A stretch of DNA of 63,509 nucleotides, the filler included, from Folioceros fuciformis (lineage: Eukaryota): assembly GCA_049999805.1 (NCBI GenBank). It is 9 parts of 9 records of this genome, joined end to end, with 100 filler letters (N's around TTAATTAATTAA, not from the genome) between each part and the next. Parts side by side here need not be neighbours in the genome. Positions count along the whole stretch, not along the records: positions 27,590 to 36,431 come from JBNGIO010002898.1; 8 more parts are not named here. One strand, written 5' to 3'. The notes under the pieces were generated by a model. That model worked only from the letters and a program-made list of their open reading frames with translations, was not told where the DNA came from and did no database searches. The position numbers were made by a program, and so were the translations under genes. Positions 8,738 to 63,509 of this stretch are shown in pieces; positions within the stretch are counted from its first letter, which is position 1; each line of letters begins with the position of its first letter.

Positions 8738-10142
8738 TTTTCTATTTTCACCCCTATTTTTCTGGATTTAATTCCATAAATTCCAATTCAACTCTGTTTC
8801 ACCTGCTTTCTTTTCCTCCTAGTTCGGGGCCTATTCCAGCACCTCGGGGTCAGTCTTCCATGGCCAAGGAACCATTTCAGCTGGAAGCTGATCCCGCTGA
8901 ATAAGCTACCATTTTCAGGCCTGGTTCCGGCTGTTGATCCCATTGCCTCCCACCTCCTCTCTATCTTTCCCACTTCTCATACTCCTCCCCTGGAGGCTGG
9001 CTCAGCCACCAAGGGTGAATAGTTGCCGGGGAAGACTTAGCGGGCGGCCATCGAGCATGGAAGAGGCGGCGTCCGCATATCTTTGAAGATCAGACATCCT
9101 TCGAAGTCTCAGGGTAGTCTAAGAGGTGGTAGATCCTTGTGGTGGTAGGGCCAGGAGCTCATTGGTGGCATGATGTGCTAGAAGTCTAAATAAGTGGATG
9201 GTGATAGCTGGCTAGGCTAGTGGTCCTATTAAAATAATATTTCTCAAGTTAGAGAGGTGAAGTCAGAGAGAGAGAGAGACTCCTATAAGATCAGGTGAGC
9301 CTGTAGGAGGAGGGAGTCATTCACTTTGGGAGTCAGTCTCTCTCTTCGTGAGCTCTTGGAGGTCCTCTCTTCATGAGCTCTTGTGGTATGTCCCTGCTTG
9401 GTTTAGGACCTGCAGTGTGTTGCCGGCTGTGCAACGTCTAGTAGGATCGCAAGCCGCGTGTTGCCGGCTGTACAGTGTCTGGTAGGATTGCAGGCAGCGT
9501 GTTGCCTGCTGTACAGTGTCTGGTAGGATCACAAGGTGTAATGACCAGGGTGTAGGGGCTTGCCCCTAGCTCTTGATTGTAAAGGATGTGTCTTTCTCTC
9601 GACCTGTCCACTCTTGTTCCCTGTTTGGACAAGTGCTATAGGCCGGCCATGTCTCATGGTGTCTGGTAAGGTTGTGGGGAGGAGATATCCAAAAGGGGAG
9701 TGTGTTCCCTTCTTTCTTTTCTTTGGGGTAAGTCTAGTGACTCTTGCCGGGTAGGAGGAGTCAGTAGGGAAGTGTAGAAGGTAGTGGTGTCATTGTTAGT
9801 TGCTGGTGTTGGTGCTGGAGTGAGAGAGTGAGTGAAGTGAGTGAGGGAAGTCGCAGATCTAAGAGGTTAGGGTCGTTGTAGTTACTGGAGTGAGTTTGTG
9901 GGCACCGAGAGAGGTGCAGCTGACCGCTGGACAGTGAGGCCTATCCTATGCCTGATCGGAGCTGGAGGGGAGCCCTCGAATCCATCATCAAGTCGATCAA
10001 GTCTGACCCTCCATCCACAGCAGCAAGGAACCTCATCGCTCCTTCGTGGGAACGAAACCCAATGTCTCAACGACAGTGGGATAAGTGTGGCCACTAAAGG
10101 TGGAACCCGTTGGCAATCAGTGCCCAGGGTTTTGCCTCCACA
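8738..10142 (-). mobile_element. Long LTR (starts TGTGGAGGC on the minus strand) inserted in a copia pre-integrase region
   Basis: About 9840-10142 is the reverse complement of 53332-53634. It interrupts WHARLG-P and contains ~3 imperfect ~41-bp repeats at 9417-9535. Confidence 0.75.
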
Positions 10143-16437: not shown

Positions 16438-16752
16438 ATGACGGGATTCTTCAGCCTGAGTCTCGCAGTCTGTGCAATCGTGATTGCTGTGTCCCTCCTG
16501 TATCAACACATAAGAGAACAACAGAGAAGGCGCAGAAAGAGAGCGGGCTGCACCACCTATCAGCTGCCTGTAAGCAGCTGGAGTGAAATAACGACGGACC
16601 AGACATGGCGTCTCGCAGGCTGGGAGTGTCGACTGTGGATTGCATTTTCGGCGAAGAGAGTGCCTGAAAGGCGCCAGCAACTGACTGAAGAAAAGGTGCT
16701 GGCAGAGCAACTGAAAAGAGCAGGCGCCTGTCCACTTCTGCCTGAAAAGTGA
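16438..16752 (+). CDS. Antisense ORF in the copia 3' region; 104-aa putative single-pass membrane protein
   Basis: Open ORF, ATG 47 nt from the LTR in context GCAGCCATG. Hydrophobic FFSLSLAVCAIVIAVSLLY is followed by the basic stretch RRRRKR. Confidence 0.55.
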   Translation: MTGFFSLSLAVCAIVIAVSLLYQHIREQQRRRRKRAGCTTYQLPVSSWSEITTDQTWRLAGWECRLWIAFSAKRVPERRQQLTEEKVLAEQLKRAGACPLLPEK

Positions 16753-16831
16753 CCATAGGCACCATAAGCTGCAGTATGCGATTAGGACTGGACTGTGGAG
16801 CTTCATCCGCATCAGCTGTGGCTTGGATATG

Positions 16832-27489: not shown

Positions 27490-27766
27490 NNNNNNNNNNN
27501 NNNNNNNNNNNNNNNNNNNNNNNNNNNNNNNNNTTAATTAATTAANNNNNNNNNNNNNNNNNNNNNNNNNNNNNNNNNNNNNNNNNNNNCTAACACCACA
27601 TGAGTTTAGCTCATATAGAGCTCGATAACTCAACATTTTGCACACCCACTTGTGTGCCCCCAGAGTCTCTTGCATCCTAGACATTCCTCTTAATGTGGAT
27701 GTTTGAGACTCCGCCACATGGTATCAGAGCCTAATTCTAGATGCTGATCTTTTTGGGCCTGCAACC

Positions 27767-28354
27767 ATGCCTTGTAGGAGGGTAGTTGATTCATCATTGC
27801 CCCGGGAGTTGCAACATCAAACTCGCCAAGGAGTGGAGTGGATTCCACCACCTCAACAAGGTCCATGGAGCCAAGAATATCTTGATGAATATCGGACTCA
27901 ACTCCGTGTATTTTGGCACAAGCAGGCCCAAGAGCGAAGACAACATCGAATTCAGTTATGTGAGCAGGATTTTGAAGGTGATTTCTAAGCAGCAAAAATC
28001 TCACCATCTTGTGTAAAGTAGAACCTTTATTCACGTTCCAACAATTCAAAATTGAAGGAGAAATTGAGCGCCTTAAAGGATATTGACCAAGAGAGATGAG
28101 GAGATTTTTCTAGAGATTTAATTCAAAAATATTTGGAGAGAATTGAAATTATATTTTCTTAATTACTCTCTAGGCATGAGTCTTTTTTGGAGTCAATTTA
28201 TGATATGGAAGAACGTTTGCAGCAAAAAATGAGCAATATGAGTTATGACATTAATCACGGCATTAAGTGCATCACACAATTGTTGCACTCAATGCATGTA
28301 ATTCCGAATGAGATGGAAGATTGCGTAGGGCCTGCAAGCCCTGTTGCAACCTAA
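27767..28354 (+). pseudogene. Extra sense ORF ('ORF0') upstream of gag, disrupted
   Basis: ATG lies 37 nt after the PBS. Pieces EPLFTFQQFKI, SKIF and IEIIFS*LLSRHESFLESIYDMEERLQQK align with 12073-12752. Confidence 0.6.
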
Positions 28355-31300
28355 TTTGAGAAAATTTTATGAGGTGGTTGAGTGGCAGCAGTTAGGGTTC
28401 CTGATTTGCCACAGCTGTTGCGCGCTCTATCCACAAATTCAGGGCTGCCTTTCAATTCTCGTTGCCCTGAACAACAGTTATGTCAGTTATTTTCCCTTTT
28501 AGTTATTCCAAACAATAAATTTTTGAAATAGCCCTAATTAATCAGACGGTTTTCAGTTAGGGTTCATATCTCGTTTTTCCATTTCATCTGAAGTGCTTCT
28601 TACCTGTATGTCTTCTTCCGTAGACTAGCTTGTTGTAGACTCAGTCATGGCTACTCCTACCTCTCCTATTCAACCAGGAGCAGTGTCTCCAACCTTCATA
28701 GGAGATCTGAAAGAAAAAGACCGTTTCAATGGAACGCATTATGATATTTGGAAAGTCAGAATGAAGTCTACTTTAATTGCTCGCGGAGTTTGGAAAGTAG
28801 TGGATGGCACTTACCCTGATCTTGGGACTCCTTTCCATCCAAGTGTTCCTGGCGCTGTTGTTGCTCCAGGCCAGAAGATCAAGTGGGATACAGCAAATAG
28901 CATAGCTGTTGCCCTGATTATTGCTGGCCTTGATTCCGATTTAGTCCTTGAAATCGAATTCTTGGAGTCTTCCAAAGCTATATGGGACCAGTTAGCTTCT
29001 ACCTACCAAGTAGTGAATTTGATGACGATGTGTGCTATTAGAGGAAAATTTATAAACCTGAAGATGAGAGAGGGGGACTCGGTCTCTGCTCACGCGAGCA
29101 AATTCCAGCACTTGCGTGCTCAACTAGCCTCCTTTGGCACTACCTTCATTGAGATCGAAGTGGTGTTACAGTTTCTTCTCAGTCTTCCTCCTAGCTATCA
29201 GACCTTCGTCACCACTCAGAATGTTCCTATCCAGGTTCCTGGTCAACCTGTCCCTGTAGGACAATCCACACCAACACTCAGCGCTGTTATTGGAGCATTA
29301 TACCAGGAAGAACAAGTTCGTCACATGCGCGGACAAGGATAGCATAAAGGCAAGAATGACAAGGTATATTTTGCCTGGAGGGGCAGAGGCCGGGGTCGTG
29401 GAAGAAATCAGTCTCAACGACCATCCAACATTTGCGGCCAGAGCTCCTCATCAAATATACAAAAACGCCAAGGCAACTGCAACTGGTGTGGGCTGCCTGG
29501 TCATTGGGCTCGTAAATGTCGCAAAAAGAAAGCTGGCGAACCTCAACGGGTGGTACCTCGTCCAGCCACTGCGACTTCAACCACCCAACAAAATAAAGAT
29601 AAGCATACAGTGGATTTCTCAACACCAAATTCAGGCAAGCCAGTTGTAAAGATTCTAACTATCTGTCTTAATACTCTAGCGAGTGATGTTGACAGTTGGT
29701 ACCTGGACAGTGGGGCAACGCGCACATCTGTCGGGAAGAGTCTCTTTTCACTTGCCTCACGTTTTCTTGTGCTCTAGACAAAGTCTACCGTGGTGATGAG
29801 AGTAGTGCCACTAGTTTAAGTATCTTAGGATCTGGAACTTGTAAGTTCCTGTTACATGATGACTCTGAGTTAGTGCTTCCAGATGATTTATATGTCCCAA
29901 AGATGGCAAAAAATGTGATGTCCTTGAGTAAACTCATGAAAATGAAGAGTCTAGTACTTATTGTATCAGGAACTGTATGTTGCTTCTCTAGACGTAGTGC
30001 TCCTGAAGTTTGTATTTTTAAGGCCTTCCTGGAGTCAGAATTGTATCGCCTAGACATATCCTGCACACATCGAGAGCACGTTTGTTCAACAACTAAAGGC
30101 AGCCTAACAACTATCTAGATGGCCAGGCTTTGGCATGCACGCCTAGGCCATGCTAACAAGACTAAACTCTTGGCATCATCTAGACAGGATTGTTACAGGG
30201 AGCCGTTACCTTCATGTTTCAAGGAACTCCCCACATGCAAGATTTGCGTTTTAACAAAGCAACGAGAAGCGTCATTTCCTCGCATACCTGCTCACAGAAT
30301 GATAGCAGTCCTGGATTTAGTACATTCAGACATTTCTGGACGACTGCAAGTCCCATCCTTAGGTGGAGTAGAATATTACCTTACCTTCACAGACGATTTC
30401 AATTGATATACCTTGACATATCATATGCAAAGGAAAAGTGATACATTTCCTCTTTTTCAAGAGTGGCTACTTCTTGTTCAAAGGTAGACTGGCCGTCTTC
30501 TCAAGGTTTTTAGATCTGACAATGGTGGCAAATTTGTCAGTAATTTATTCAAACAATTTTTGGAAGACAGAGGCATAATACATCAACTTATTGTTCCCTA
30601 CACACAGCAACAAAATGGCATGGCGGAGAGAAAGAACCAAACCTTAATGGGCATGACCAGATCCATGCTGTTGTGGTATGGACTTTCTTCTCCATACTGG
30701 GCAGAAGATGTGGTCACAGCAACCTATATTTTGAATAGACTTACCACTAAGGCTCTGCCCAATAAGACCCCATCTGAATTCTTCTAGAATCGGAAGCCAA
30801 GTATTTCACATCTTCGTGTTTTTGGCTCCAAAGCCTTTGAATATGTGCCTGCAGAGAAACGGCGAAAGTTAGATGATAGGGCTCTTCCCCTACTCTTTGT
30901 CGGTTACAGTGAAGTAACCAAAGCTTATAAACTAATTAATCCTAAAACTTTGCAGCCCACAATTGCCGGGAGTGTTACTTTTATTGAGATACTAAATCCA
31001 CCAGTTTTGGACAATGGAAGCTCACCTGGACATCCTACTGATCTTCTGTATGCCGAGAACTTTGTTGAATATCCAGTTGATGCAGATGGTGATGATGGTT
31101 CTGTCAATCCAGATGCCCTTCCTCCACTTGCAGATCAACAGCCTCTCCCCGCCAATGCACATCCAGATCATGACCTAGATCCAACTTTAGAAGAACGAGT
31201 CATCCCTGAACAACTTGTAGATGATCCTGAGTTACCTGCCCAGAATCACGACGTAGGTTTAGGAGACTCAAGTGACCAAAGTTCCATAGCTTCTTCTCCT

Positions 31301-33228
31301 GACTCTGAAGAAACATCTGATCTTACTCCTGTTCCCACACAACTAGTTCGTCGTTTAGAACGTATTAGGAACCCCAGATTAGAAACTCCTTTCAAGTCTT
31401 TGGATTTTTGAAAGTTCGTGTGCGTTTGCTTTCCTTTAGTCCAAGCTGTAGTACCATCCATCCCTCCAGAACCTGTCACGCTCACTGAGGCATTCACTGG
31501 TCTTGACAAATCAAAATGGAAGATGGTAGTGGATGACAAATTCAAAAGTCTTATTCAGAATGGTACCTGGCAGCTTGTTCCTTGTCCAGCAGGCCGCAGA
31601 CCCATCACTTGCAAGTGGGTCTTCAAACATAAGCTTAATGCTGCTGGAGAGATAGCCAGGTACAAGGCACGTTTGTGTGCCCGTGGATTTACACAAGTCC
31701 CAGGGTTAGACTTCCAAGAAACCTTTTCTCTAGTTGTCTGTTCCCAATCTATTCACCTCATGTTGGCTCTTGTGGCTGAACGTGACCTAGAGTTAGAGCA
31801 GATGGATGTGAAGACAGCCTTCTTGCATGGTATTCTAGAAGAAGAGCTGTACATGGAACAGCCAGAAGGCTATGAGGATCCTGCACATCTGAATTGGGTC
31901 TATAAGCTCATGAAGTGCATCTATGGACTGAAGCAAAGTGCAGAACGCTGGAATGCCAGGTTAGACACTTGCCTGAAATCTCTTGGCCTTAAGCAGAGTC
32001 CCGCAGATCCCTCGGTGTACATCTATGATGATGGAAAAGCCTATGTCTTGCTGGCTATATATGTTGATGACGCTATTTTTGCTTCCAACGACAAACCACT
32101 ATTAGCAAGAGTTCAAGACATGCTTTGCAAGGAGTTTGAAATGACAGATGTTGGAGAATTAAAATTTTGCCTAGGAATTCAAGTCCTTCAAGTTCAAGAA
32201 CAAGGCATGATCATTATCCATTAGCATAAATACATTTCTGAGATTTACAGCGATTCCATATGGCCACTGCACATCCTGCCGCCACTCCTGCTGCTGTTGG
32301 AACACGACTCAGCAAGAATGACTGCCCGACCTCAGCATTTGACAAGGAAGACATGAAAGATGTACCTTACAGGCATGCCGTTGGCAGCCTACTTTTTGTT
32401 AGCAACTGGACGAGGCCGGATATTACATATGCTGTCAACACCGCTTCTCAGTCCCTGGAATGCCTTGGACACAATCACTGGACAGCAATTAAACGCATTT
32501 TTAGATATCTGAAAGGTACTCCTCACCTTGGTTTGTGCTACAAGCGAACTGGTTTGGTTCCTACCTTACAGGGTTTTGCAGACGCTGACTGGGCCTTGGG
32601 CCTCAGATTCAGATTCCCGTAGGAGCCTCTCTGCCTATGTTTTCTTACTTTCATCTGCTGCTATAAGCTGGTCCTGCAAGAAACAAACAAGCATAGCTCA
32701 GTCTAGTACAGAAGCAAAGTATAAATGCTTGACAGAATCAGCAAAAGAGGTAGAGTGGGAAAAAGTGTTTCTTCAGTCTGTCCATGCTAAACAGTCTAAG
32801 CCAACCCTCCTCTTCTGTGACAATGCATCAGCCCTAGAACTTGTTGAGCGTCCTCGTTTCCATGCTCGAACCAAACACATAGAGATACAGCACCACTATA
32901 TTAGGGATGTAAAATCACGAGGAGTCGTTAGCCCCACCTATGTTAATACAGAAGCCAACATAGCTGATATACTGACAAAAGCTCTTCCTAGACACAAACA
33001 TGAGGCACATGTCAAAGGTCTAGGTCTCATCGATTTTTCTCCCCACCTTACACAGTGATGCAGTAGCCCTGTTCACTTTACAACAGTATTACTGGCTTTA
33101 CAATTCTGCACGTTGTTAGTGAGAGTATGTTCCCTTACATTTGTCCAAGTGGATCAAGCGTCACAGTTATATCCAGTCGTGGGCACGGTCATGAGCAAAG
33201 GAACCAAAATCCTACCTGGCCAAACCCT

Positions 33229-33744
33229 TTACCTCCCTTCCTTCTTCCTCCTGATTGCGGCTTGAGCCTTACGCACGTCATAACCGTCTTTTGAGAGCTC
33301 AGCCAGAACCTCTTCAAACTCCTCAACTGTTAGTTCGCGACCACCTTGTCCTGTGTTAAGCCCAACAGAAATTGTGTTTGCAAGTTGGGTTGCGCTTAGC
33401 TTGATAGCCTCTAGCTGCTTCTCCAGTCTTGCGCACTTGTCATCTAAACCCAAGAGGTCCTGAATCAGCTCCTTGTCCCTGGTTGTTGGCCACTTCTTGT
33501 TGGAACTTGCCGAGGCAACTAAGACAACAGAGATGGAGCTCCCTTCAACATCTGAGTCATTCGCTCCTCCGGCCACCTGAAGTCTAAGCTGAGACGTATG
33601 CCCACAGATTCAATTTCTAACCATATTGAAGACTGGTGGGAGCAACAAAGGTGCTACAGTGATCAAGAAAATGACCAGCCAGAGGAAGCAACTCACCAAG
33701 AAGGTCATGGGAACAATCTCTTTAGACATCGAATCCATCTCCAT
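33229..33744 (-). pseudogene. Antisense TM plus coiled-coil ORF (171 codons, one in-frame TGA at 33610-33612)
   Basis: MEMDSMSKEIVPMTFLVSCFLWLVIFLITVAPLLL...N*ICGHTSQLRLQVAGG continues in frame into the listed 115-aa ORF. Confidence 0.72.
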
Positions 33745-34141
33745 GCGATGCTCGTGAGAGTGCTACGGATTCAACACGTGGAGCCGGTGTTAACTTTCGC
33801 GTGCAGCCTTGAATGAAGCTGTTGAGATTTTTCGTGAGTCTAGAAGCGGCACTTGCCTCAGGGTTTAGGGTTTTTTCACCGTTTCCTATTCAGTTTCGTA
33901 TCTAAGTTTCTAACATAATTAACCCGTTCAAGGTTAAGTGGGTGTGTTAGATAAATAACTTCTTAGGGTTAAATAGATACAATTAAAGCTACTTTTGTTA
34001 GGGCGCATACCCTAAATGTACATATATGAATTTTTGTGTTTATTGAGTTAGTTGAGTATTTTGCACACCCACTTGTGTGCCCTTAGAGTCTCTTGTATCC
34101 TAGACATTCCTCTTAATGTGGATGTTTGAGACTCCGCCACA

Positions 34142-36431
34142 AAAATTACTCATCAAACTTCTTTTGTTGCATATGTGAGATGTAGCCCCAGAATCCAAGT
34201 ACCAAGCATCATGTGTCTTGGGAGGCTTGGATGTGGACAAGCAAGTCGTCATCACAACTGGCGATTTGCCTTGTGTTGTCTTGTCCTTGGAAATCGTGTC
34301 GGCCTCAGCCCCTCTATGAGTCTTCTCGGCCTTCTTAGGTTCTCCATTTTTCTTTTTATGATACGCCCGCTCCCAATGGCCGGGAGAGCCGCACCAATTG
34401 CAGGCTCCAACCTCTTGGTTTGACCTGGCTTGGTGTTTCCAGCCTTAGATGTGCTAGGTGTAGAGAAGTTTCTACCCTTGTGTTGTGAACGAGGTTTAAA
34501 GGTAAAAAGGACTTTATCTGTTTTGGTACGCCCAAAATGGGAATGAGAACCACTACGTGATTGCTCTTCTTGGAACAAGGCTCCTACAACATGGGTGAAG
34601 CTAATCTACACTGTTTGTCCTACAGCTGCGGCTCTGCCTGCATCTCTAAGTGAGGCTCTGTAGCTAGAGACAAAAGGCTGATAGCTTGAAGGAAGACTTG
34701 TAAGGAGTTGGGCTACAACATCTAAGTACGACATAGTATACCTTATGAAATCAGCTGTGATCTAAGGTGCCTAAACTTGCCCACAAAAACAGCTGCCTTT
34801 TCATTGTCACGCATACGAAGAGAGAAAAGCTCACTCCTTACAGCACATAAGGTTAGTATATTTTTCACATCATATGTCTGCGAAAGCTGGTTCCATATAT
34901 CCTCGACTTTAGCCAAATAGGCAACATCTGGAACTAGTACCTCATCAAGACCACTTATTAGGAGGGCTCGAGCCACATTATTGGCGTTGTCCCATCTGTC
35001 CTTATCGAATTGATTTGCGGTAGCTCCAGGTTGTTTGAAGTGTCCGCTCACAACGCCCCATACGTGCCTAGCATCAAGTGCTGCTTGCATGCGCACGCTC
35101 CACATGGGGTATTTGTTTCCATTGAACCTATCCCGCTCCTTGAACTCAACTGTATACGATGGCTGATAAATTAGTGTGTGTGCCTGTATAGGAAAATTAA
35201 AGCCTGCTCCCGATCTTGGCAAGGCAAGTGGAGGAGGCCCGTAAGCAGGTCCTGGCCCAGGCAAGGGATTTCCATATCCAGCTCCAAGGTTCGGCAACGG
35301 GTTGGAGAATCCAGCTCCTGTCATAGGCAAAGGATTCCCGGGACCAGCTCCATAGCTTGGCAGAGGATTGGAAAATCCCGCTCCTGGCGCACTGGAAAAA
35401 CCTGTTCCAGGCATAAAGGAGGGGATAGTGGGAAACGGCGTTGTGGAGAAGATTCCAGATGGAGAAGTAGTTGCCGTAATTGTGGTCGAAGCCGTATTCG
35501 CAGGGTTTGAAGATGTGGCGGCGAGAGTTGATGCTGCAGGCGTGCCTGAGGAGGCCGCTGCTGGCCCACCAAACAGAACCCCAGCCAGGCTGTGGCTAGG
35601 GATGCCACTGGAGCCTGGGGAGCCAGCCATGGAGTCTAGGCAGCGAGGGTATGGCAACCTCCACTCCGAGAAAACGGCAACCTAACTACAGGTTCAGGCG
35701 GCGGGCATGCAAAGGGCAAAGAGCGCTAAGGGTTGAGGGAGCTCATGCGTGGATCTTGCCCTCGATCTGCGAGGCCTTGTGCTTGGCTGTAGGGAGCTGC
35801 TTGTGTAGGGGAGGCCAAGAGAACTGCTGATGTCGTGGGACCCGAGCCACTGAAGGAAAACGCAGTCTTGCCCTTCCCTGGCTAGGCCTGTTAGCGACGA
35901 GGCTAAAGTAGCTTCTCGTTCCAAGCTCTCAATTTCTGTTGCTCCGAGGCATTTTCAAAATGCCGTTGTCTGCATAGTTTATCTAGCGATGCAGCAGAAA
36001 ACTAGGTTGATGATCTAGCATCATTAGGAACAATTTTTCAGAGGGCATGCTAGACTAAATCATGTGATGCAGGCAGTGGATGTTTTTAGAACACACTAGC
36101 CAGCATCCATATTTGGTAGTGGGTGCTGGGCGCCGTGTTTGTAAAACATTTCAGCTTCAACATCATTACCATAAAGTAAATTTTCAGACTAAAAATATAT
36201 ATAAGGAGTATAATATCTAAACAAGAATGCAAGAGCATTTATTACATGCCATACCCCTATCCTGTTGCTCTAAGAACAACGTATTGACAGCGCTGATACC
36301 ATGTTAATATTCTAGAGATGCTAGAAGATGCAGATAAGAGCAAACTTGTCAAAGAAAAAACAAGATAATTATTTTAAGTAATCAAAAGAGTGTCTTATAT
36401 ACATAAGTTGTTTAACTCTAAGTGACCTTTC
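34142..36431 (-). mobile_element. Copia 5' part (LTR 36302-36431, PBS, gag with Pro/Gly-rich N-terminal extension, protease start)
   Basis: PBS TGGTATCAGCGC at 36290-36301. FKERDRFNGNKYPMWSVRM; WYLDSGATSHIC is cut at 34142 by the previous element. Confidence 0.9.
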
Positions 36432-36531: not shown

Positions 36532-38820
36532 GTCTTCACATGGAGGGGGAACCCCCTCAGTGTATTAACCATATCAAGTGAGTGACCCTGGGCTCTACCC
36601 ACAAGTATTTGGGACTTCCTTTTCAAGAGGGGGAGGAGAATGGGGAGATTGGGAAGTATGTCTGCCTCAGGTTCATTCGCAAAGCGGCTAGTTTACAATT
36701 GCTGGAGCTCAACTTGGCAGGTAGGCTTGTGGTGATTAACCATATCCTTACAGCCTCTTTATGGTACTTTTTGTTTATGTGGGCGCCTTCTAAGACAGAG
36801 GTGAAGCGCTTACAACAGGTGCTGACCTCTTTCTTGTGGAAACGTTCAGGGGATGGTTTGGCTGGGTGTTCTAAAGTGGCTTGGCAGCATATTATTCAAG
36901 CGCGTGGAATGGGGGGCCTAGGGGTGGTGGACCCAGTTGCCAAGATGAAAGTTTTGCATGCTCAATGGGTTGTCAGGGCAGCGGATCCAACATACTACCC
37001 TTGGAAGAGTATGCTAACACAGTACTTGGACGGCACCCAAGCTGTCCCCAGGGGTAGGAGGTCTATTGACAACATTCTAGCTGACAAACCGCTGCTGGAT
37101 ACTACAGGATGCTCCCCGCTCTTTAAGTCCATCTGGAATAGTTACTTGGAGGTCAAACATTATCTTATCCCGGGCACCTTCTCTCATTTGGATGATGTTC
37201 TGGGTATTCCTTTGCAGGGCTTCTCAAGGTTATGGGTACGGGAGTTCAGGCCAAAGGTTTATCGGTCACAAATTTTTGGGCTGGTTTGTCACAAAGGCGT
37301 TATCCAACTTGGGCATTTATGAAATAGATCAGAGTCCCGTTGGAAGGAGGTGGAAGAGGTCAGAAGGGAGTTTGGCGTAGGGGCCCGGCACGTCAAACTC
37401 ATATTCTCGTGGTTGCACGAGGGGCTAGAGGAAAAGGTACATCATATCCTAAAGCAACAACCTACCATAGGCGAGGAAGGGTGGTTTGCTTACTCCATGG
37501 ATAGTAGGGGAGTCGACTCGGAGGAGGAGGATGAACAGGACGAAGCATTAGAGCTAGACAGGGTGATTTGGCTTGCGAGAGCTGACGGCAAAGAGACGTT
37601 GAAGTCGTTCAAGGTCTTGTCGCCTAACGGCTCTCTGGAAGTGCAAGGTAGGGACGACGGTGAAGGCCGAGGGGGGGAACTGCGGGCTATTATTGTAATC
37701 TGTAGGTCCGTTCGGGCAGGGTGGTGGTACACGTCTGGCAAACGCCCAACTGGGCCACGAACCTATGATAAAGCAAAGGTTCTGTGCTGGTTCCGATTGG
37801 GTGAAAACTAGGCTCTGACCTTCAAACTAGATCTCTACAGGTGGCTTAAGCGCCCGGGGTGCAAGAAAGCTACTTCTCGATCTTTCTTCAACTTCCCAAC
37901 GGCAGACCTCTTCCTTTGGTTGGTGCGAGCGCAGAAAATCAAACAAAGACAACCAATGGCTCCCCGCCTGAGGTTAACTGGACGGCGCCAAAAGGAAGCC
38001 ATCAAGCTCCTATGGCACTCCGCAGGAGTCCCTCCCAAGGTCAGGTTTACAGTTTGGTGTTTCTTTCAAGCATGTTTGTCTAATGCAGATCGTTGGGATG
38101 GGCTTCTTGCTGCAACGGGGGAGGACATGTGTCGATTGTGCACCGATGGTGCCCCAAACAAGAGTCAACACATGTTCTTTCACTACTGTTTTGCCCAAGA
38201 GATCTGGGGCGAGGTGAACAGGTGGCTTCGATTGATTTTTCCTAGAGCTAACCTCAAGATCACGAGTCAATCAGCCTTATTTGGGCTGGACGCAGCCTCG
38301 GGCAAACCTCTCATGAAGACCCAATGGTGGGGCTTACTGTGGTCCTCTTGTCTTTTCTATCTCTGGGTCAATTGGTCCGTGGTGGTTCACGGAGGACGGG
38401 AGTGAGCTTCAGTGAAAGCTCTGTTATGGCGCATATGGGAGCATTTATTGATTGCAGCAGAAGCCTTGGAGCAATCAAGCCGGAAGCAATTTAAGCGGAA
38501 AGACTGGAGGATGGCCGGCTTCCTTTCGCCTGGGAAAGATACGGGTTGGAATCACTCGTGCCCCTAGGGACGGTGAGCCTTTAGGGTCTTTGAGAGACTT
38601 TGAAGGGTGTGTATCAGTGTTTTAGGCAGGCGGCGGGTACCATAGTGTAGGGGAGCACTCTCCGTGCGCCTTGTCTTGAGCTTTGGTCTTAAGGCTAGTC
38701 CTCCCCCCTCTCTTTCGGTGCTCGATATATGTCCATTCGTTAGCAGGGGGTTCCCATTGTATTGTAAGTGGGAGGAGTCTTCCACTCATAATTAGAATTA
38801 TTTGCTTCACGAGAAAAAAA
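36532..38820 (+). mobile_element. L1-type LINE 3' part (ORF2 C-terminus with zf-RVT-like motif, 3' UTR, poly-A)
   Basis: KYLGLP, KVAW, GGLGV, CRLC...HMFFHYCFAQEIW; A-tail ending at 38820. Same family as 1357-6790. Confidence 0.92.
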
Positions 38821-51258: not shown

Positions 51259-53331
51259 TGATAAGCAGAATGCTAGAATCGATAGAGAAAGCATCGGTCT
51301 TGCGTAGTGCGCCGTGCGTCTTGCAACTGACACTTACACGTACATGTTCCGTGAAAGAGACATGACGGTTATAATGGTTAGGGTTAGCTAACCTAGACCT
51401 GAACCTAACTAAGGGTAATTAATACCCTATCACTCCCACTCAGTTCGAATGGTTAGTGTAGTTATAGTTCTATACTAATTATCCATCTATCTATTTGTTT
51501 GTTTGTTTGATTAGAAATTTCTAAAACCTTTTAAGAAACTTGAACTAGACCTATAAACGTTGCCCTAGACAAAGAAACTTCGTCGTCGGGCTCCGTTCTT
51601 TGGCCTTCAATCTTCGCGACGCCGCTAGTCTTCACGCCGCTCATCGCCATGCCTGCTGCTCTCCGGATCGGAGATGGTTGTCCCCCGCAAGCTTTTCCCT
51701 GAGGCTCTCAAGCCAAGTGCAGCTGCATGCTCATAGTGTTTTACGCGTCCTAGGGCCTTGGTCAAGATATCCGCTGTCATTCTCTCAGTTGGGCAATAGA
51801 CAACATGGATAATTCCTGCTGCGGCCATCTCTCGGATGAATCTATGCTGGATTTCAATATGTTTGGTGCGGGCATGAAACCTGGGATTCATAGTGAGTGC
51901 TATCGCACTCTGATTGTCACAGATTAGCGTGATGGGGAGCTATTGTTCGAAGCCGACCTCGTGCAATGCTCCCACTGTCCACACAACCTTCTTGGTTGCT
52001 TTTGTAAGACTTTTAAACTCTGCCTCTGTGCTGGATAGAGCTATGGTGGTTTGTTTCTTACTGCTCCATCCTACTGCAGCACCTGCCAGGAGAGTAACGT
52101 AGCTGGAGACGCTGCGACGGTCATCTGGGTCCCCAGCCCAGTCGGCGTCGCTGTATGCCACAAGGGTGAGTGGCTTCTCTGCCTTGCAAGTGTAAAGCAA
52201 GCCCCAGTTTGACGTGCCTTGCAGGTATCTGTACTGTCTGGTCATCAGGTCACTGTGAGAGGCATTCGGATTTGACACAAACCTAGACGTCAGCCCCGAG
52301 GTGAAGCTAATGTTTGGTTTGGATCCTATCATGAGATGCATTGTGCTGCCGTTCCTGGATGGATAATCTGCTACAGCTGCCAGCTCCTCCTCAGGTGGAT
52401 TTCCTTCTTGAGCCCGATACTTAACATTTTGTTCAGCAGGTGTTGCCATCGGTTTGCAATTTTGCATTCCGTATCTCTCTAGAATCTCTCTTGTATACTT
52501 CGCCTGATGCAGGAAAATCATCCCTGCCTGCCTGTTTCTGACTAGGTGCATCCCAAGACAATAGTGTAAGGCTCCAGCATCTGTCATTTTAAATTTAGCA
52601 CTCAGTTGCTCCTTCAGAGTCCTTATCTCACTCCAGGAATTGCTCATGACGATTAGGTCATCTATGTATACAGCCAGTGCTATGAACTTCCTTCCCTGTC
52701 TCTTGACATACACATTGCTGTCCGCATGAAGGCTTAGGAAACCTAGTGCCTTCAGAAATGCATCTATTCTTGCATACCAGGCTCGAGGGCTCTGCTTCAG
52801 CCCGTAGATAGTCTTCTTGAGCTTGTAGACAGGTCGAGGAATCCTTGTGGTGACTGCAACCCCTTCAGGTACGTCCATGTAAATTTCTTCATCAAGGTTT
52901 CCATACAGGAATGCTGTTTTTGACATCCAGCTGTTCTAATTCCAGGTCTTCCACAGCTGCTAGGGCAACGAAGAGTCTCAAGGTTGTAAGCTTGACAACT
53001 GGGCTAAATGTGTCGTCATAATCAATGCCAGGTATTTGTGAATACCCCTTTGCTACAACCCTACCCTCGTATCGCTCTACACTTCCGTTTGTGAATACCC
53101 CTTTGCTACAACCCTACCCTTGTATCGCTCGACACTTCCGTCTGCCTTCATTTATTTTGAATACCCATTTACAGCCGACTGCTTTGCGGCCTACTAGCAG
53201 GCTGGTTAATGTCCATGTGTCTTTTTCATGCAAGGACGCAAGCTCCGAGTCTATTGCAACCTTCCACAAGTTAGAATCTGGGTAGGACATAGCCTCCGCA
53301 TAGGATTGAGGCTCATATAGTTGTGCATTTG
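51259..53331 (-). mobile_element. Copia RT and RNase H with 3' LTR (51259-51432)
   Basis: TGATA...TATCA LTR, PPT AGTGGGAG, YIDD, YSDADWAGD, RTKHIEIQH. A 53-bp tandem duplication lies at ~53035-53141. Confidence 0.92.
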
Positions 53332-53634: not shown

Positions 53635-53914
53635 NNNNNNNNNNNNNNNNNNNNNNNNNNNNNNNNNNNNNNNNNNNNTTAATTAATTAANNNNNNNNNN
53701 NNNNNNNNNNNNNNNNNNNNNNNNNNNNNNNNNNTGTTGAAGGTGGCCGCTTCCCCTTCGATAGCACTGCGTGAAACAGCCGCTACAGCGGATCCGGTCC
53801 TTTTTCCTTTCTTCTCTCATTCTCAGTTGCAGCCAGAATCGTCATTTTCTGTTGAAGCCCACAAATCTCTCAATTTCTGTTGAAGCCAACAATTCTCTAG
53901 TTCAGGTACGAGCG

Positions 53915-54703
53915 ATGCAGAAATCAGGGGCGCGGCCGAGAGATTCTGAGTTGCAGATGCAGATGCGGGACGACATCAGCCAGAGGTCGCTTCGGTTGTT
54001 CGCCGACGGCCAGCTTGACAGCCAGGTGCAGAAGCTACACATGTTGTGCACCTTAGTCATGGCGTGTTCATTCACCGCGGTCCTGCAGCCTCCGGGGGGC
54101 GTCAGTACGGACACAAGAGACTTTGACAAGTTTAAGCCAGGACAGGCAAATCTGCTGCCGGAGTCGACAGTTTTCTGGATCTTTACCGTCGCGAATAGCT
54201 GTGCCATGTCGTTTTCTTATGTCGCTGTCCTCATCTCCTTTGTGTTCCCGCCCAGCATGATTTCGTGGTGTGGGACAGCGCTCTGCTTTGTTTCTGTCCA
54301 TTGCTTCGTTGCCGCATTTTGTGCGTCGCTGTCGATCGTCTTGGGCCAGGAGAGGACCACTTTCATCATCGGTGCTTTCTTGTTCAATCTCTGCTTGATC
54401 CTCCTCTTCATCTGCGGCAGCGTGTACGGCGGATGCAAGATAATCTGGGACTTGATCCTCCTCTTCATCTGCGGCAGCGTGTACGGCGGATGCAAGAGAA
54501 TCTGGGACTTGATCCTCCTCTTCATCTGCGGCGTGTACAGCGGATGCAAGAGAACCTGGGGGTCTACTTCGCGTACGAGCCCAGACATCGTCGCTTCAGA
54601 TGGAGCTGGCGAGCCTGAAGTTATTTCTGGTGAAGGAGCTGGCGAGTCTGAGAGTTCCCAGTATGTCAAGGTCCAATGCACACAAGTTGATGAAGAGTTA
54701 TAA
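53915..54703 (+). CDS. PGG-domain multi-pass membrane protein (ACD6/ankyrin-PGG-type TM domain), no ankyrin repeats visible
   Basis: LCTLVMACSFTAVLQPPGGV...FWIFTVANSCAMSFS...FVAAF matches the PGG pattern. Uninterrupted ORF. The start (first ATG) is uncertain. Confidence 0.85.
   Translation: MQKSGARPRDSELQMQMRDDISQRSLRLFADGQLDSQVQKLHMLCTLVMACSFTAVLQPPGGVSTDTRDFDKFKPGQANLLPESTVFWIFTVANSCAMSFSYVAVLISFVFPPSMISWCGTALCFVSVHCFVAAFCASLSIVLGQERTTFIIGAFLFNLCLILLFICGSVYGGCKIIWDLILLFICGSVYGGCKRIWDLILLFICGVYSGCKRTWGSTSRTSPDIVASDGAGEPEVISGEGAGESESSQYVKVQCTQVDEEL
54394..54560 (+). repeat. 57-bp in-frame tandem repeat, ~3 copies, inside the PGG gene
   Basis: Units start at 54394, 54451 and 54508 and encode LILLFICGSVYGGCK(I/R)IWD. 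Confidence 0.95.
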
Positions 54704-55320: not shown

Positions 55321-55430
55321 TTTGGGCAGGTTCTACATTGGAGTGGCGAAAACTTAGATAGTTAGGGCTGTGCATGGAGGTGACATATGTGTCCACAGCA
55401 GATAGCACAGTGAACGCAGAGGTCTAAAGG

Positions 55431-55630
55431 AAGGATGATAAACCGTGGATGCTGAACCCACAAGCCCTAGCCCTCACTAGAAGGATGATAAACCATGGAT
55501 GTTGAACCCACAAGCCCTAACCCTCACTAGAAAGATGATGAACCGTGGATGCTGAACCCACAAGCCCTAGCTTTCACGAGAAGGATGATAAACTGTGGAT
55601 GCTAAACCCACAAGCCCTAGCCCTCACTGG
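55431..55630. repeat. 50-bp tandem repeat, 4 copies
   Basis: Unit AAGGATGATAAACCGTGGATGCTGAACCCACAAGCCCTAGCCCTCACTAG. Confidence 0.95.
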
Positions 55631-62374: not shown

Positions 62375-62726
62375 GAGGAAACATGGTGATAGCTAGAGTT
62401 CGTGTGAGCTTGTCCTTCTTCTTCGCTCATGAGCTTCGCCTTTAACCATTGCAGGTTAACAGGGAGTGTTAGGGTTAATTAGTGATTAACTATATATTTA
62501 ACCTGCTTAGGTTAAATTATATTCAAGGGTCATACCCTTAGGGTTGCCCATACATATTGACAAACTTTTTTTTTTTTTTTTAACACTTGAGATATACACA
62601 TATATAGTATTGTACACAAAAGTATCAGCCTCCGGGCTCTCTTGCATATTTTATGCTAAATGACTATCTTCTGATAGTTTACATTGCTCATAGCCCCATG
62701 AGTCACAAGAGCAAAGAGGATGAATA

Positions 62727-63050
62727 GGAGAATACTTATGGACTTTGGCGCTTATCTTGCAAGGGAGAATACTTATGGACTTTGGCGCTTGTCTTGCAAG
62801 GGAGAATACTTATGGACTTTGGCGCTTGTCTTGCAAGGGAGAATACTTATGGACTTTGCCGCTTGTCTTGCAAGGGCGAATACTTATGGACTTTGGCGCT
62901 TGTCTTGCAAGGGAGAATACTTATGGACTTTGGCGCTTCTCTTGCAAGGGAGAATACTTATGGACTTTGGCCCTTGTCTTGCAAGGGAGAATACTTATGG
63001 ACTTTGGCGCTTTTCTTGCAACGGAGAATACTTATGGACTTTTGCGCTTG
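62727..63050. repeat. 37-bp minisatellite, ~8.7 copies
   Basis: Unit GGGAGAATACTTATGGACTTTGGCGCTTGTCTTGCAA, head-to-tail, no spacers. Confidence 0.97.
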
Positions 63051-63509
63051 CACAACCCTCCGCCACCCATCTAGGGGGGTTGATGATCACGTGCTCGCAA
63101 TTTGAATCCCTAGTACGATCTATAACAACCACATCAACAACACAAACCTATTTCCCCGTAAAGGAAAAAAAAGGTCAGCTGTCAAGCATGATTGTGTGCT
63201 ATCGCTTAGATGCATGCAAATAGTAATTAGTTAATAATTAAGTGATGCTAATAAATAGCATTAGTGGTCATTAATGACTATTTAGTGAAGGTGATTAGAA
63301 AATATAATATAATATAATATAATATTAGCTAGATAAACATATAACTAGATGTGTGGATATGGTTGCAGCAAGTCTCAAGTAGCAGGCATAAAAGCTTAGC
63401 TCAACTGTGTTCGCTATAGTTGTAAGCTTGTATTCTCTTTGCATTCTGTGGAATAGGCTGAAATTAAGGGAGCATTCTCTTGAGTGCATCCTCTTGGAAG
63501 TGCATTCTC

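Follow-up and report, generated by a model that had tools for sequence, protein, structure and literature searches.

The DNA analysed here (hereafter the window) is a stretch of 63,509 nucleotides from Folioceros fuciformis, and the Ty1/copia element at 27636-34141 raises the question of whether a copia element of about 6.6 kb from a non-seed land plant carries genes of its own besides gag-pol. Its parts follow one another as a 5' LTR remnant, primer binding site (PBS), sense ORF (ORF0), gag-pol, antisense ORF (AS-A), polypurine tract (PPT) and 3' LTR, with zero assembly gaps between 27636 and 34141, as the first-pass annotation had claimed. The LTR-to-LTR architecture it described is real in the order of the parts, but only 83 bp of the 5' LTR survive and the remainder is gone. 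The features are:

27590..27635, minus strand: beginning of another copia family's LTR, which sits reversed in the 5' LTR (46/46 identical to L100:5516-5561)
27636..27718, plus strand: 5' LTR remnant, its 3' 83 bp, ending ...CA (80/83 identical to 34059-34141)
27719..27730, plus strand: PBS, TGGTATCAGAGC, directly after the LTR
27767..28354, plus strand: ORF0, 195 codons long, here with 4 internal stops
28355..28646, plus strand: non-coding spacer; a pyrimidine tract and CAG stand immediately 5' of the gag ATG; frame-breaking indels between copies
28647..33058, plus strand: gag-PR-INT-RT-RH in Ty1/copia order, with stops and three frame changes
33149..33160, plus strand: 12-mer, non-coding and conserved, between the stops of pol and AS-A; of the GTGGATGAAGCT type, GTGGATCAAGCG in this copy
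33744-33229, minus strand: AS-A, antisense ORF of 171 codons, 1 internal stop
33919..33944, plus strand: small inverted repeat TTAACC..GGTTAA, overlapping the PPT
33930-33944, plus strand: PPT, just 5' of the 3' LTR
33945..34141, plus strand: 3' LTR, 197 bp, TG...CA
34142..35681, minus strand: host element, gag and protease start of another copia, interrupted by the window element

The GAG-PR-INT-RT-RH order with an RVT_2-type RT, the TG..CA LTRs (the 3' one whole, the 5' one an 83-bp remnant), the PBS and the PPT are those of Ty1/copia, and Pfam recognised Retrotran_gag_2, Pol_BBD, SH3_retrovirus and RVT_2 domains in gag-pol. The PBS presumably pairs with the 3' end of whole tRNA-Met (plant initiator tRNA-Met). 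Every ORF is broken, gag-pol by 7 stops, counted over its first two frame segments, and by the three frame changes, and this copy is a dead, decayed member of its clade. The left part of the 5' LTR was replaced by the start of the nested, reverse-oriented LTR of another copia family, an insertion that adjoins a scaffold gap and whose counterpart in L100 stands after a PPT. The missing part was not among 9 matches in G000, and the target site duplication (TSD) of the window copy is therefore unreadable, while clade members C6112 and C6333 have 5-bp TSDs matching at 5/5 and 4/5 positions.

Could the accessory regions be unrelated nested insertions, or host fragments captured by a few copies? The region is rich in nested elements, one of them inside the element's own 5' LTR. 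However, sister DNA is colinear with no breakpoint, both from the LTR into gag (L002, 94% over 2.5 kb; L003, 87%) and between RT and the 3' LTR (L016, 85%; L017, 80%). Among 16 clade members selected by RT, AS-A was present in 12/12 readable 3' ends and ORF0 in 7/7 readable 5' ends; the 5' ends of C5444 and C3870, sought as unbiased tests, were absent. In a profile search of 48 contigs, 27/29 with an AS-A match had RNase H 166-543 nt away, on the strand opposite to AS-A; one further AS-A match adjoins RNase H by another search, and C3311 has no pol in the stretch examined. The same search placed gag 295-438 nt downstream of ORF0 in 15 of the 21 contigs with a match, the remainder being contig ends or interruptions. 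Both ORFs occur together in five contiguous elements. Nested insertion, which the first-pass annotation had itself named as the finding that would undo its reading, thus fails against colinear copies, fixed slots and purifying selection; it is refuted for the clade and retains next to no probability. The three-gene layout that the annotation had proposed holds, with slots kept and sister copies colinear, whereas its likeness to complex retroviruses is an analogy only, env being absent and pol not of the retroviral type.

For the two accessory ORFs, omega was 0.33 (13 rows, 2dlnL 150) and 0.27 (11 rows, 2dlnL 171), in both cases tested against omega = 1 on codon alignments built from in-frame segments with protein guidance, which therefore favour the chosen frame. 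In the window's subfamily the antisense ORF (AS) was constrained about as RT was (0.38 and 0.32), and Gag was much more constrained (0.12). ORF0 constraint within the window's own family was weak (omega 0.58, 2dlnL 4.9; 0.97 for the nearest pair); decay after insertion would give such values, though they are not themselves proof of it. A further alternative is that no protein is made and the ORFs are by-products, reflecting conserved cis-acting RNA or a sense-strand frame whose shadow they are. In its favour, omega is similar (0.43) for the AS shadow frame on the sense strand, L092 and L099 have sense ORFs of 104-126 aa that overlap AS, and antisense RNA alone is able to regulate (PMC7264820). 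Nevertheless, over nine pairs the antisense frame had 15 stops as against 60 in the shadow frame and 60-158 across the other five frames; indels were multiples of 3 in 10/10 cases in the AS-pair DNA alignments vs 4/12 in the spacer; and the start codon, hydrophobic segment and WPT/C/L motifs of AS-A persist down to about 25% identity. We consider it very unlikely that no protein was involved. ORF0 and AS-A are, with high confidence, inherited parts of the element: each keeps its slot and orientation, and their protein sequences were constrained between families.

The first-pass annotation had called the trait lineage-specific, which is true of ORF0, whose homologues were seen only within or next to a 22-row RT clade, but not of the antisense ORF: AS-A homologues also occur in copia clades of the same genome with RT only about 40-55% identical, where they are accompanied by non-homologous 5' ORFs. 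In the sister clade, an antisense ORF unrelated to AS-A (AS-B) fills the same slot. Candidate homologies between AS-A and AS-B (hhalign 0.2%), AS-A and ORF0 (0.1%), and AS-B and an ORF at 16.4 kb of the window (1%) were rejected. This last ORF (16438-16752, antisense, 104 aa, hydrophobic) lies in the roughly 440-nt 3' region of a sixth copia (pol 20719-16832) that had been left out when the other copia 3' ends in the window were described as short; the five that were named (13.0, 22.7, 44.1, 48.3 and 51.4 kb) are indeed short and without such an ORF, indicating that it is dispensable for copia in general. The patchy spread on the RT tree, with the same protein in distant clades and another in the sister, points to module exchange, on a quick tree whose deep forks are not firm, which kept only 14 metagenome rows and in which C1280, C5882a, C5444, C6684 and C6367 (short or frameshifted pieces) are unreliable. 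From these comparisons, the 3' slot appears to behave as an exchangeable module, which in different clades holds one of at least two small, mutually unrelated hydrophobic-plus-helix proteins. The nearest database protein in the lineage search was 55% identical, and the named ones 38-44%.

A sense ORF before gag together with an antisense ORF after pol has so far been described mainly for the gypsy class, to which Grande and RIRE2 belong. REXdb tabulates this layout for gypsy/Ogre and for zero copia lineages, and with its cut-off of 250 codons both ORFs of the window element would be missed; a literature search, for which most subscription papers were out of reach, found no copia with it. Ogre (Ty3/gypsy, Tat; eORF-5'F in 21% and eORF-3'R in 60% of elements; PMC6317226, supplement MOESM5) shares both positions and orientations, but it is a gypsy of about 15 kb with a tRNA-Arg PBS and an extra RNase H, and its eORFs have at least 250 codons, often with a plant mobile domain, whereas the accessory ORFs considered here have 155-220 codons and no Pfam match. 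The aORF-3R of Retand, Grande, RIRE2 and PvRetro13 is, like AS, a family-wide conserved antisense ORF after pol and before the 3' LTR; Retand and bean ORF2 are described as gypsy cases (PMC11963269, PMC4093653), and Grande's has its own demonstrated antisense promoter (PMC7264820). That region measures 2.9-6.6 kb, in contrast to 0.75-0.95 kb in the window's clade, and its products are TRP28/SMC-like and nuclear or predicted DNA-binding, whereas AS has a hydrophobic segment and, in the three stop-free rows searched, no Pfam match to TRP28 (PF04195), plant mobile or SMC-like domains. SIRE (Sirevirus) is a copia with a tRNA-Met PBS and an extra ORF between pol and PPT, and env-like products of the SIRE type can carry transmembrane segments (PMC7264820). 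Unlike the window element, however, it averages 9.9 kb, carries its eORF in sense orientation (74%; antisense 1%) and has no tabulated 5' ORF; here, no sense stretch downstream of pol stays free of stops for more than 86 codons, and the constrained frame is antisense. Of the REXdb lineages, Bryco and Lyco, which belong to non-seed plants, and Osser are likewise Ty1/copia; their TSDs are 5 bp, the length read in clade members C6112 and C6333, and Lyco shares the full tRNA-Met PBS, but they average 4.7-5.3 kb with no eORFs tabulated, and Bryco and Osser use half tRNA-Met, which TGGTATCAGAGC does not match. Plant copia other than SIRE have been treated as bare gag-pol units; many copia families of one genome carry small conserved accessory genes under the standard survey's cut-off, and such genes may therefore be widely overlooked.

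What might these proteins do? AS-A consists of a short N-terminus, a hydrophobic segment, a Ser/acidic linker, a WPT motif, a coiled coil and an ELTVEE helix. Kyte-Doolittle 19-residue maxima near the N-terminus are 2.1-3.0 in 8/9 full-length AS rows and 1.7 in the ninth, and the protein is predicted to cross the membrane near its N-terminus and to form a coiled coil. ORF0 is basic and helical, with an Arg-rich start, a conserved W/YR/W/QE helix, a long C-terminal amphipathic helix and a hydropathy maximum of at most 1.0. AlphaFold models of both are all-helical with low pTM (0.35, 0.40). Searches of near-length proteins among 5.8 billion found no homologue in 405 candidates for ORF0 (P0002) and 121 for AS (L092), and the AS profile had no match in 1.84 billion representative proteins. 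Neither the ESM Atlas (no usable match) nor IMG/VR matched the accessory proteins, nor did their profiles match 62 metagenome copia loci. Pfam matched none of seven accessory sequences and no family at E<=0.01 for three stop-free AS rows, with only weak coiled-coil matches under cut-off for the window AS fragment. Foldseek returned nothing from PDB and BFVD at E<=0.001, and the best VIA-align hit (Z 7.9) was to generic helical bundles.

We suggest that the window copy decayed from a Ty1/copia clade whose active ancestors probably encoded two accessory proteins besides Gag-Pol. ORF0, first on the genomic RNA, would be translated from it, and gag-pol would be reached via splicing or re-initiation; AS-A would require a separate transcript of the opposite strand that begins within or close to the 3' LTR. 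As a tentative joint guess from sequence features, AS could be a membrane tether, ORF0 an RNA regulator and the 12-mer a candidate cis site. AS-A would then be a single-pass membrane anchor whose short N-terminus lies outside and whose coiled coil lies in the cytosol, tethering the virus-like particle to an endomembrane or trafficking it there, and ORF0 an oligomeric, basic, putative nucleic-acid-binding regulator of element RNA.

Alternatively, both proteins could be anti-silencing or transcription factors on element DNA, the role played by VANC of VANDAL transposons, with the hydrophobic segment incidental or cleaved. Roles on DNA have been proposed for Grande gene23 and Retand TRP28, and the plant antisense ORF products known to date are either nuclear or predicted to bind DNA (PMC7264820, PMC11963269); moreover, the 12-mer is a short motif conserved across families and ORF0 is basic. 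The same disruption of AS-A's hydrophobic N-terminal part is seen in 4/4 readable copies of one subfamily (C6094, C6112, C4152, C5444), indicating that this subfamily multiplied without an intact membrane segment, and the C-terminal part is still constrained (L044/L101, 0.46). Conversely, TRP28, SMC or other Pfam matches are lacking, and most families retain the hydrophobic segment, which is also present in the unrelated AS-B. The antisense products look like membrane proteins, as opposed to the nuclear or DNA-binding ones of gypsy elements. We regard action on DNA as doubtful.

AS might also be a movement or fusion protein, comparable to sORF2 of the Drosophila MDG1 group or to the small movement proteins of plant viruses, taking particles between cells, through plasmodesmata or towards gamete-forming cells. 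It has 104-175 aa, one hydrophobic segment, a short N-terminus and a cytosolic amphipathic helix, which on hydropathy only agrees with sORF2/FAST proteins (60-210 aa, one transmembrane segment, short ectodomain), and MDG1-group elements (Drosophila gypsy) likewise have two small accessory ORFs, sORF1 and sORF2, one encoding a membrane protein that has a single pass and amphipathic helices (10.1101/2025.03.14.642691). Those ORFs, however, are mostly upstream of gag in an animal host, all 105 sORF2 candidates are sense-oriented, and their myristoylation motif and, apparently, their polybasic patch are largely absent here: MGxxxS/T occurs in 1/9 full-length AS rows, and only 2-4 K/R lie within 25 residues after the hydrophobic segment, where the published rule uses 15 residues. 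Cell walls argue against fusion, and BFVD gave no match at E<=0.001; we judge a movement or fusion role unlikely. An undescribed copia group in which an exchangeable antisense membrane-protein cassette moves particles cell-to-cell, with a Rev/Rex-like 5' ORF acting on a conserved 3' RNA element, is similarly improbable; if true, it would mean envelope-free spread in a walled organism, with two or more unrelated proteins having taken on that role independently.

A membrane protein and a soluble partner on one mobile unit, with seemingly fast module turnover, also recall wtf-type drivers, and ORF0 and AS could be a selfish pair, active in haploid tissue or spores as poison and antidote or in copy-number control. 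Yet AS-A of distant clades is paired with non-homologous 5' ORFs, and copies freely lost either gene after insertion, which makes such a pair highly improbable. Stop-free natural homologues of AS-A (L092, L098, L099, L100) and of ORF0 (218 aa, L027), with ORFs of 150-220 codons, allow simple localisation and binding tests, which bear on the role of additional ORFs in LTR retrotransposons.

Among the non-coding features, the pyrimidine tract and CAG of the spacer are a possible splice acceptor, judged by sequence, and YAG directly precedes the gag ATG context in 7/10 leaders; no convincing splice donor was found in the leaders examined. A simple invariant hairpin at the 12-mer was discarded, as predicted folds differ among families, and Rfam had no match in 33000-34200. 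Telo-box-like motifs lie upstream of AS in only 4/18 rows, and a telo-box was rejected as a general antisense promoter mark. One sequencing run, checked for expression, yielded a single distant contig, on gag/RT.

The window sequence, a contig string with N linkers, is dense in nested copia elements, and the one studied here is inserted in the protease of another copia. Domain matches and ORF calls bore out the first-pass annotation in placing at 27636-34141 a single gap-free element with accessory ORFs on both sides of gag-pol:

27636 (start), remnant of the 5' LTR, 83 bp
27719, primer binding site (PBS)
27767-28354, + strand, ORF0
28647-33058, gag-pol, with Pfam copia gag, protease, integrase SH3 and RVT_2 domains
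33744-33229, antisense ORF (AS-A)
up to 34141, polypurine tract (PPT), then the 197-bp 3' LTR

The LTR length of about 200 bp proposed earlier agrees with the 3' LTR, but only 83 bp are left of the 5' LTR, which is cut at 27635 by the reverse-oriented LTR start of another family; its left part was absent among nine matches in the host assembly, and the two LTRs differ at 3 of 83 comparable sites. This copy is dead, because it carries stops in ORF0 (four), in the antisense ORF (one) and in the gag-pol segments counted (seven), together with three gag-pol frame changes. In sister copies the reading frame continues past the end of gag, indicating that gag-pol is one ORF. For two exons compared with the PDB, the nuclear RbcS genes of the assembly scored highest against 9CHZ, a hornwort Rubisco, above chains from angiosperms and algae, which suggests a non-seed land plant. 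Compared with database proteins, the RT-RNase H of the clade showed at best 55% identity (38-44% for named proteins), with no close relative. The Gag of the host copia (34746-35681, - strand) has an N-terminal extension of about 170 residues, rich in Pro, Gly, Ser and Thr, with repeated GAGFSNPLP-like units.

We searched the assembly (87 Mb in 7240 contigs) for both ORFs, finding ORF0 at 29 places in 20 contigs and AS at 18 places in 16 contigs, with 34 matches for a second AS query; contigs C4063 and C6684 hardly differ and could represent a single locus. Among 48 contigs given to the profiles, AS matched in 29, 27 of them with an RNase H encoded on the other strand at a distance of 166-543 nt, and ORF0 matched in 21, with gag 295-438 nt downstream in 15 and the remainder truncated at contig ends or interrupted by insertions. 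So as not to select on the trait, 16 clade members were chosen by RT among 150 scored RT matches of 2872 candidates. AS was present at all 12 readable 3' ends and ORF0 at all seven readable 5' ends, the unreadable ends belonging to truncated or interrupted copies. Additionally, DNA alignments of sister copies show no breakpoint, either from the LTR to within gag or between RT and the 3' LTR, so that the alternative of unrelated nested insertions fails for this clade. Both ORFs are visible in five contiguous elements, two of which have flanking duplications (5/5 and 4/5 matching) and LTRs that are 96% and 93% identical.

The ORFs keep their slot and orientation, are inherited, and are constrained at the protein level. 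Codon models gave ω 0.33 for AS (13 rows; 2ΔlnL 150 against ω = 1) and 0.27 for ORF0 (11 rows; 2ΔlnL 171), with 0.38 and 0.35 for AS and 0.27 and 0.58 for ORF0 in closer subsets, and the nearest sister pair neutral (0.97); for comparison, RT of matching copies gave 0.32 and Gag across families 0.12. The codon alignments were built from selected in-frame segments, a choice that biases towards protein-level constraint. In frame tests, nine AS pairs yielded a mean ω of 0.41 with 15 stops in the antisense frame, 0.43 but 60 stops in the sense shadow frame, and 1.4-1.8 with 125-158 stops in the other four; eight ORF0 pairs yielded 0.55 with 33 stops, against 0.77-1.79 and 83-248 stops in other frames. 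Indels in unguided DNA alignments were multiples of three in 10/10 cases for AS, 4/6 for ORF0 and 4/12 for the spacer.

In a quick RT tree of 84 rows, the element falls within a 22-row clade (SH-aLRT 98) in which both ORF0 and AS-A are found. Its 15-row sister clade carries a different antisense ORF, AS-B (loci L130, L135, L140, L136, L145, L132 and L137; ω 0.26), with a hydrophobic start, a W-rich middle (EWDE..GW..CW..P) and a C-terminal helix; hhalign detects no homology between AS-B and AS-A (0.2%). AS-A homologues reappear in two more distant groups, contigs C4928/C3031/C6247/C4963 and C237/C6038 (hhalign 98%, E 1e-14). A third candidate, an antisense 104-aa ORF at 16438-16752 (+) behind a nearly intact copia pol (20719-16832), combines an N-terminal hydrophobic segment (2.5) with an Arg-rich patch, has a conserved non-coding 12-mer at 16810, and shows no detectable homology to AS-A or AS-B. 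From these distributions, ORF0 marks one clade, as expected for the lineage-specific trait proposed initially, whereas an antisense ORF in the 3' slot is common in the assembly, and which ORF fills it changes. This pattern is compatible both with old inheritance followed by replacement and with recombinational exchange. Copia families of the window cluster with unnamed database RTs (P0006, P0047, P0007, P0012, P0013), with identities reaching 80-84%, indicating relatives in other public assemblies.

Several other families have 5' ORFs with basic starts that are not homologous to ORF0. The leaders of L204, L095, L196 and L201 hold sense ORFs of 120-200 codons in the interval from PBS to gag; these begin with basic residues, include a helical part, and match the ORF0 profile marginally or not at all. 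In another copia, a leader of 1.2 kb (12794-11570, -) follows the PBS and holds broken ORFs starting MRNRGNTRRSRRQR. The LTR of this copia also terminates the element that ends at 13.3 kb, and the two thus lie in tandem with one common LTR.

Searches of Pfam, protein collections and fold libraries yielded no identity for AS-A or ORF0. In AS-A, some 10 residues precede a hydrophobic 19-mer (hydropathy 2.1-3.0 in 8/9 full-length rows). Behind it come a linker of Ser and charged residues, a WPT motif, an amphipathic helix in which L, C, L, E and L are invariant, and a final ELTVEE helix. ORF0 lacks a hydrophobic segment; its start is Arg-rich, the residues W, YR, W, Q and QE are invariant, and its C-terminal helix spans 65 residues. 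Our best guess, still tentative, is that AS may tether particles to membranes while ORF0 acts as a basic oligomeric regulator; in one AS-A subfamily the hydrophobic part is broken alike in 4/4 readable copies, which counts against a fixed membrane role. Of the main rivals, an anti-silencing role is only slightly less probable than this guess, and cell-to-cell movement is unlikely. Starting about 45-50 nt past the LTR end in a good start context, ORF0 would come before any other long ORF on the genomic RNA, and gag-pol would be reached by splicing or re-initiation; YAG precedes the gag ATG in 7 of 10 leaders, and no clear splice donor was seen. AS would need an antisense transcript, such as the one shown for Grande (PMC7264820).

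Together, these results support well a real, compact copia element whose three-gene layout resembles that of Ogre and which encodes two small proteins that no search identified, one of them membrane-like. As in this copia, extra ORFs of gypsy/Ogre are tabulated in both slots in PMC6317226, which for REXdb copia gives SIRE a 3' extra ORF in sense in 74% and in antisense in 1%, and Bianca and Ikeros low percentages with ambiguous slot columns. Because ORFs below 250 codons were excluded from that count, it would miss both ORF0 and AS. Retand and the bean elements, whose antisense ORFs have TRP28/SMC-like domains, are gypsy (PMC11963269, PMC4093653). We found no copia with ORF0 plus an antisense ORF in the literature seen; supplementary element-level tables of PMC6317226 may hold cases.

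Flanked by the stop codons of pol and of the antisense ORF, the 12-mer (up to two mismatches) recurs in 41 of 51 distinct 3' regions examined in the assembly and in 3 of 31 metagenome rows, and an exact 14-mer of the motif had 33 matches in the assembly against one for the reversed control. It is not tied to AS, because it occurs in some short ORF-less 3' regions and is missing from the AS-bearing contig C5266. This GTGGATGAAGCT-type motif (33149-33160; 41 regions) often has CTAA/CTGA and ATC behind it, at a distance of 10-14 nt; it may be a protein-binding RNA element, with a faint resemblance to a C/D box or K-turn. An Rfam search of the region gave no match. Telo-box-like AAACCCTA motifs precede the AS start on its own, antisense strand (33860-33875, L016 and L056), in only 4 of 18 rows, two of them the copy studied here. 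A short inverted repeat, TTAACC..(G)GTTAA, lies at 33919-33937 and in most AS-bearing families, directly before the PPT.

The window also holds tandem arrays:

62653-63096, 37-bp unit
55380-55629, 50-bp unit
54394-54561, 57-bp unit
53035-53140, 53-bp unit
9412-9534, 41-bp unit

Another element is present as two 96%-identical copies in opposite orientations (1358-2866 and 36532-38820). The two ends of L098 (contig C6367), 1-730 and 6417-7146, match at 100% over 730 bp, which probably reflects a repeat collapsed in the assembly. Within retroelement sequence, a 312-aa ORF at 53765-54703 (+) encodes a PGG domain (PF13962, E 1.5e-14).
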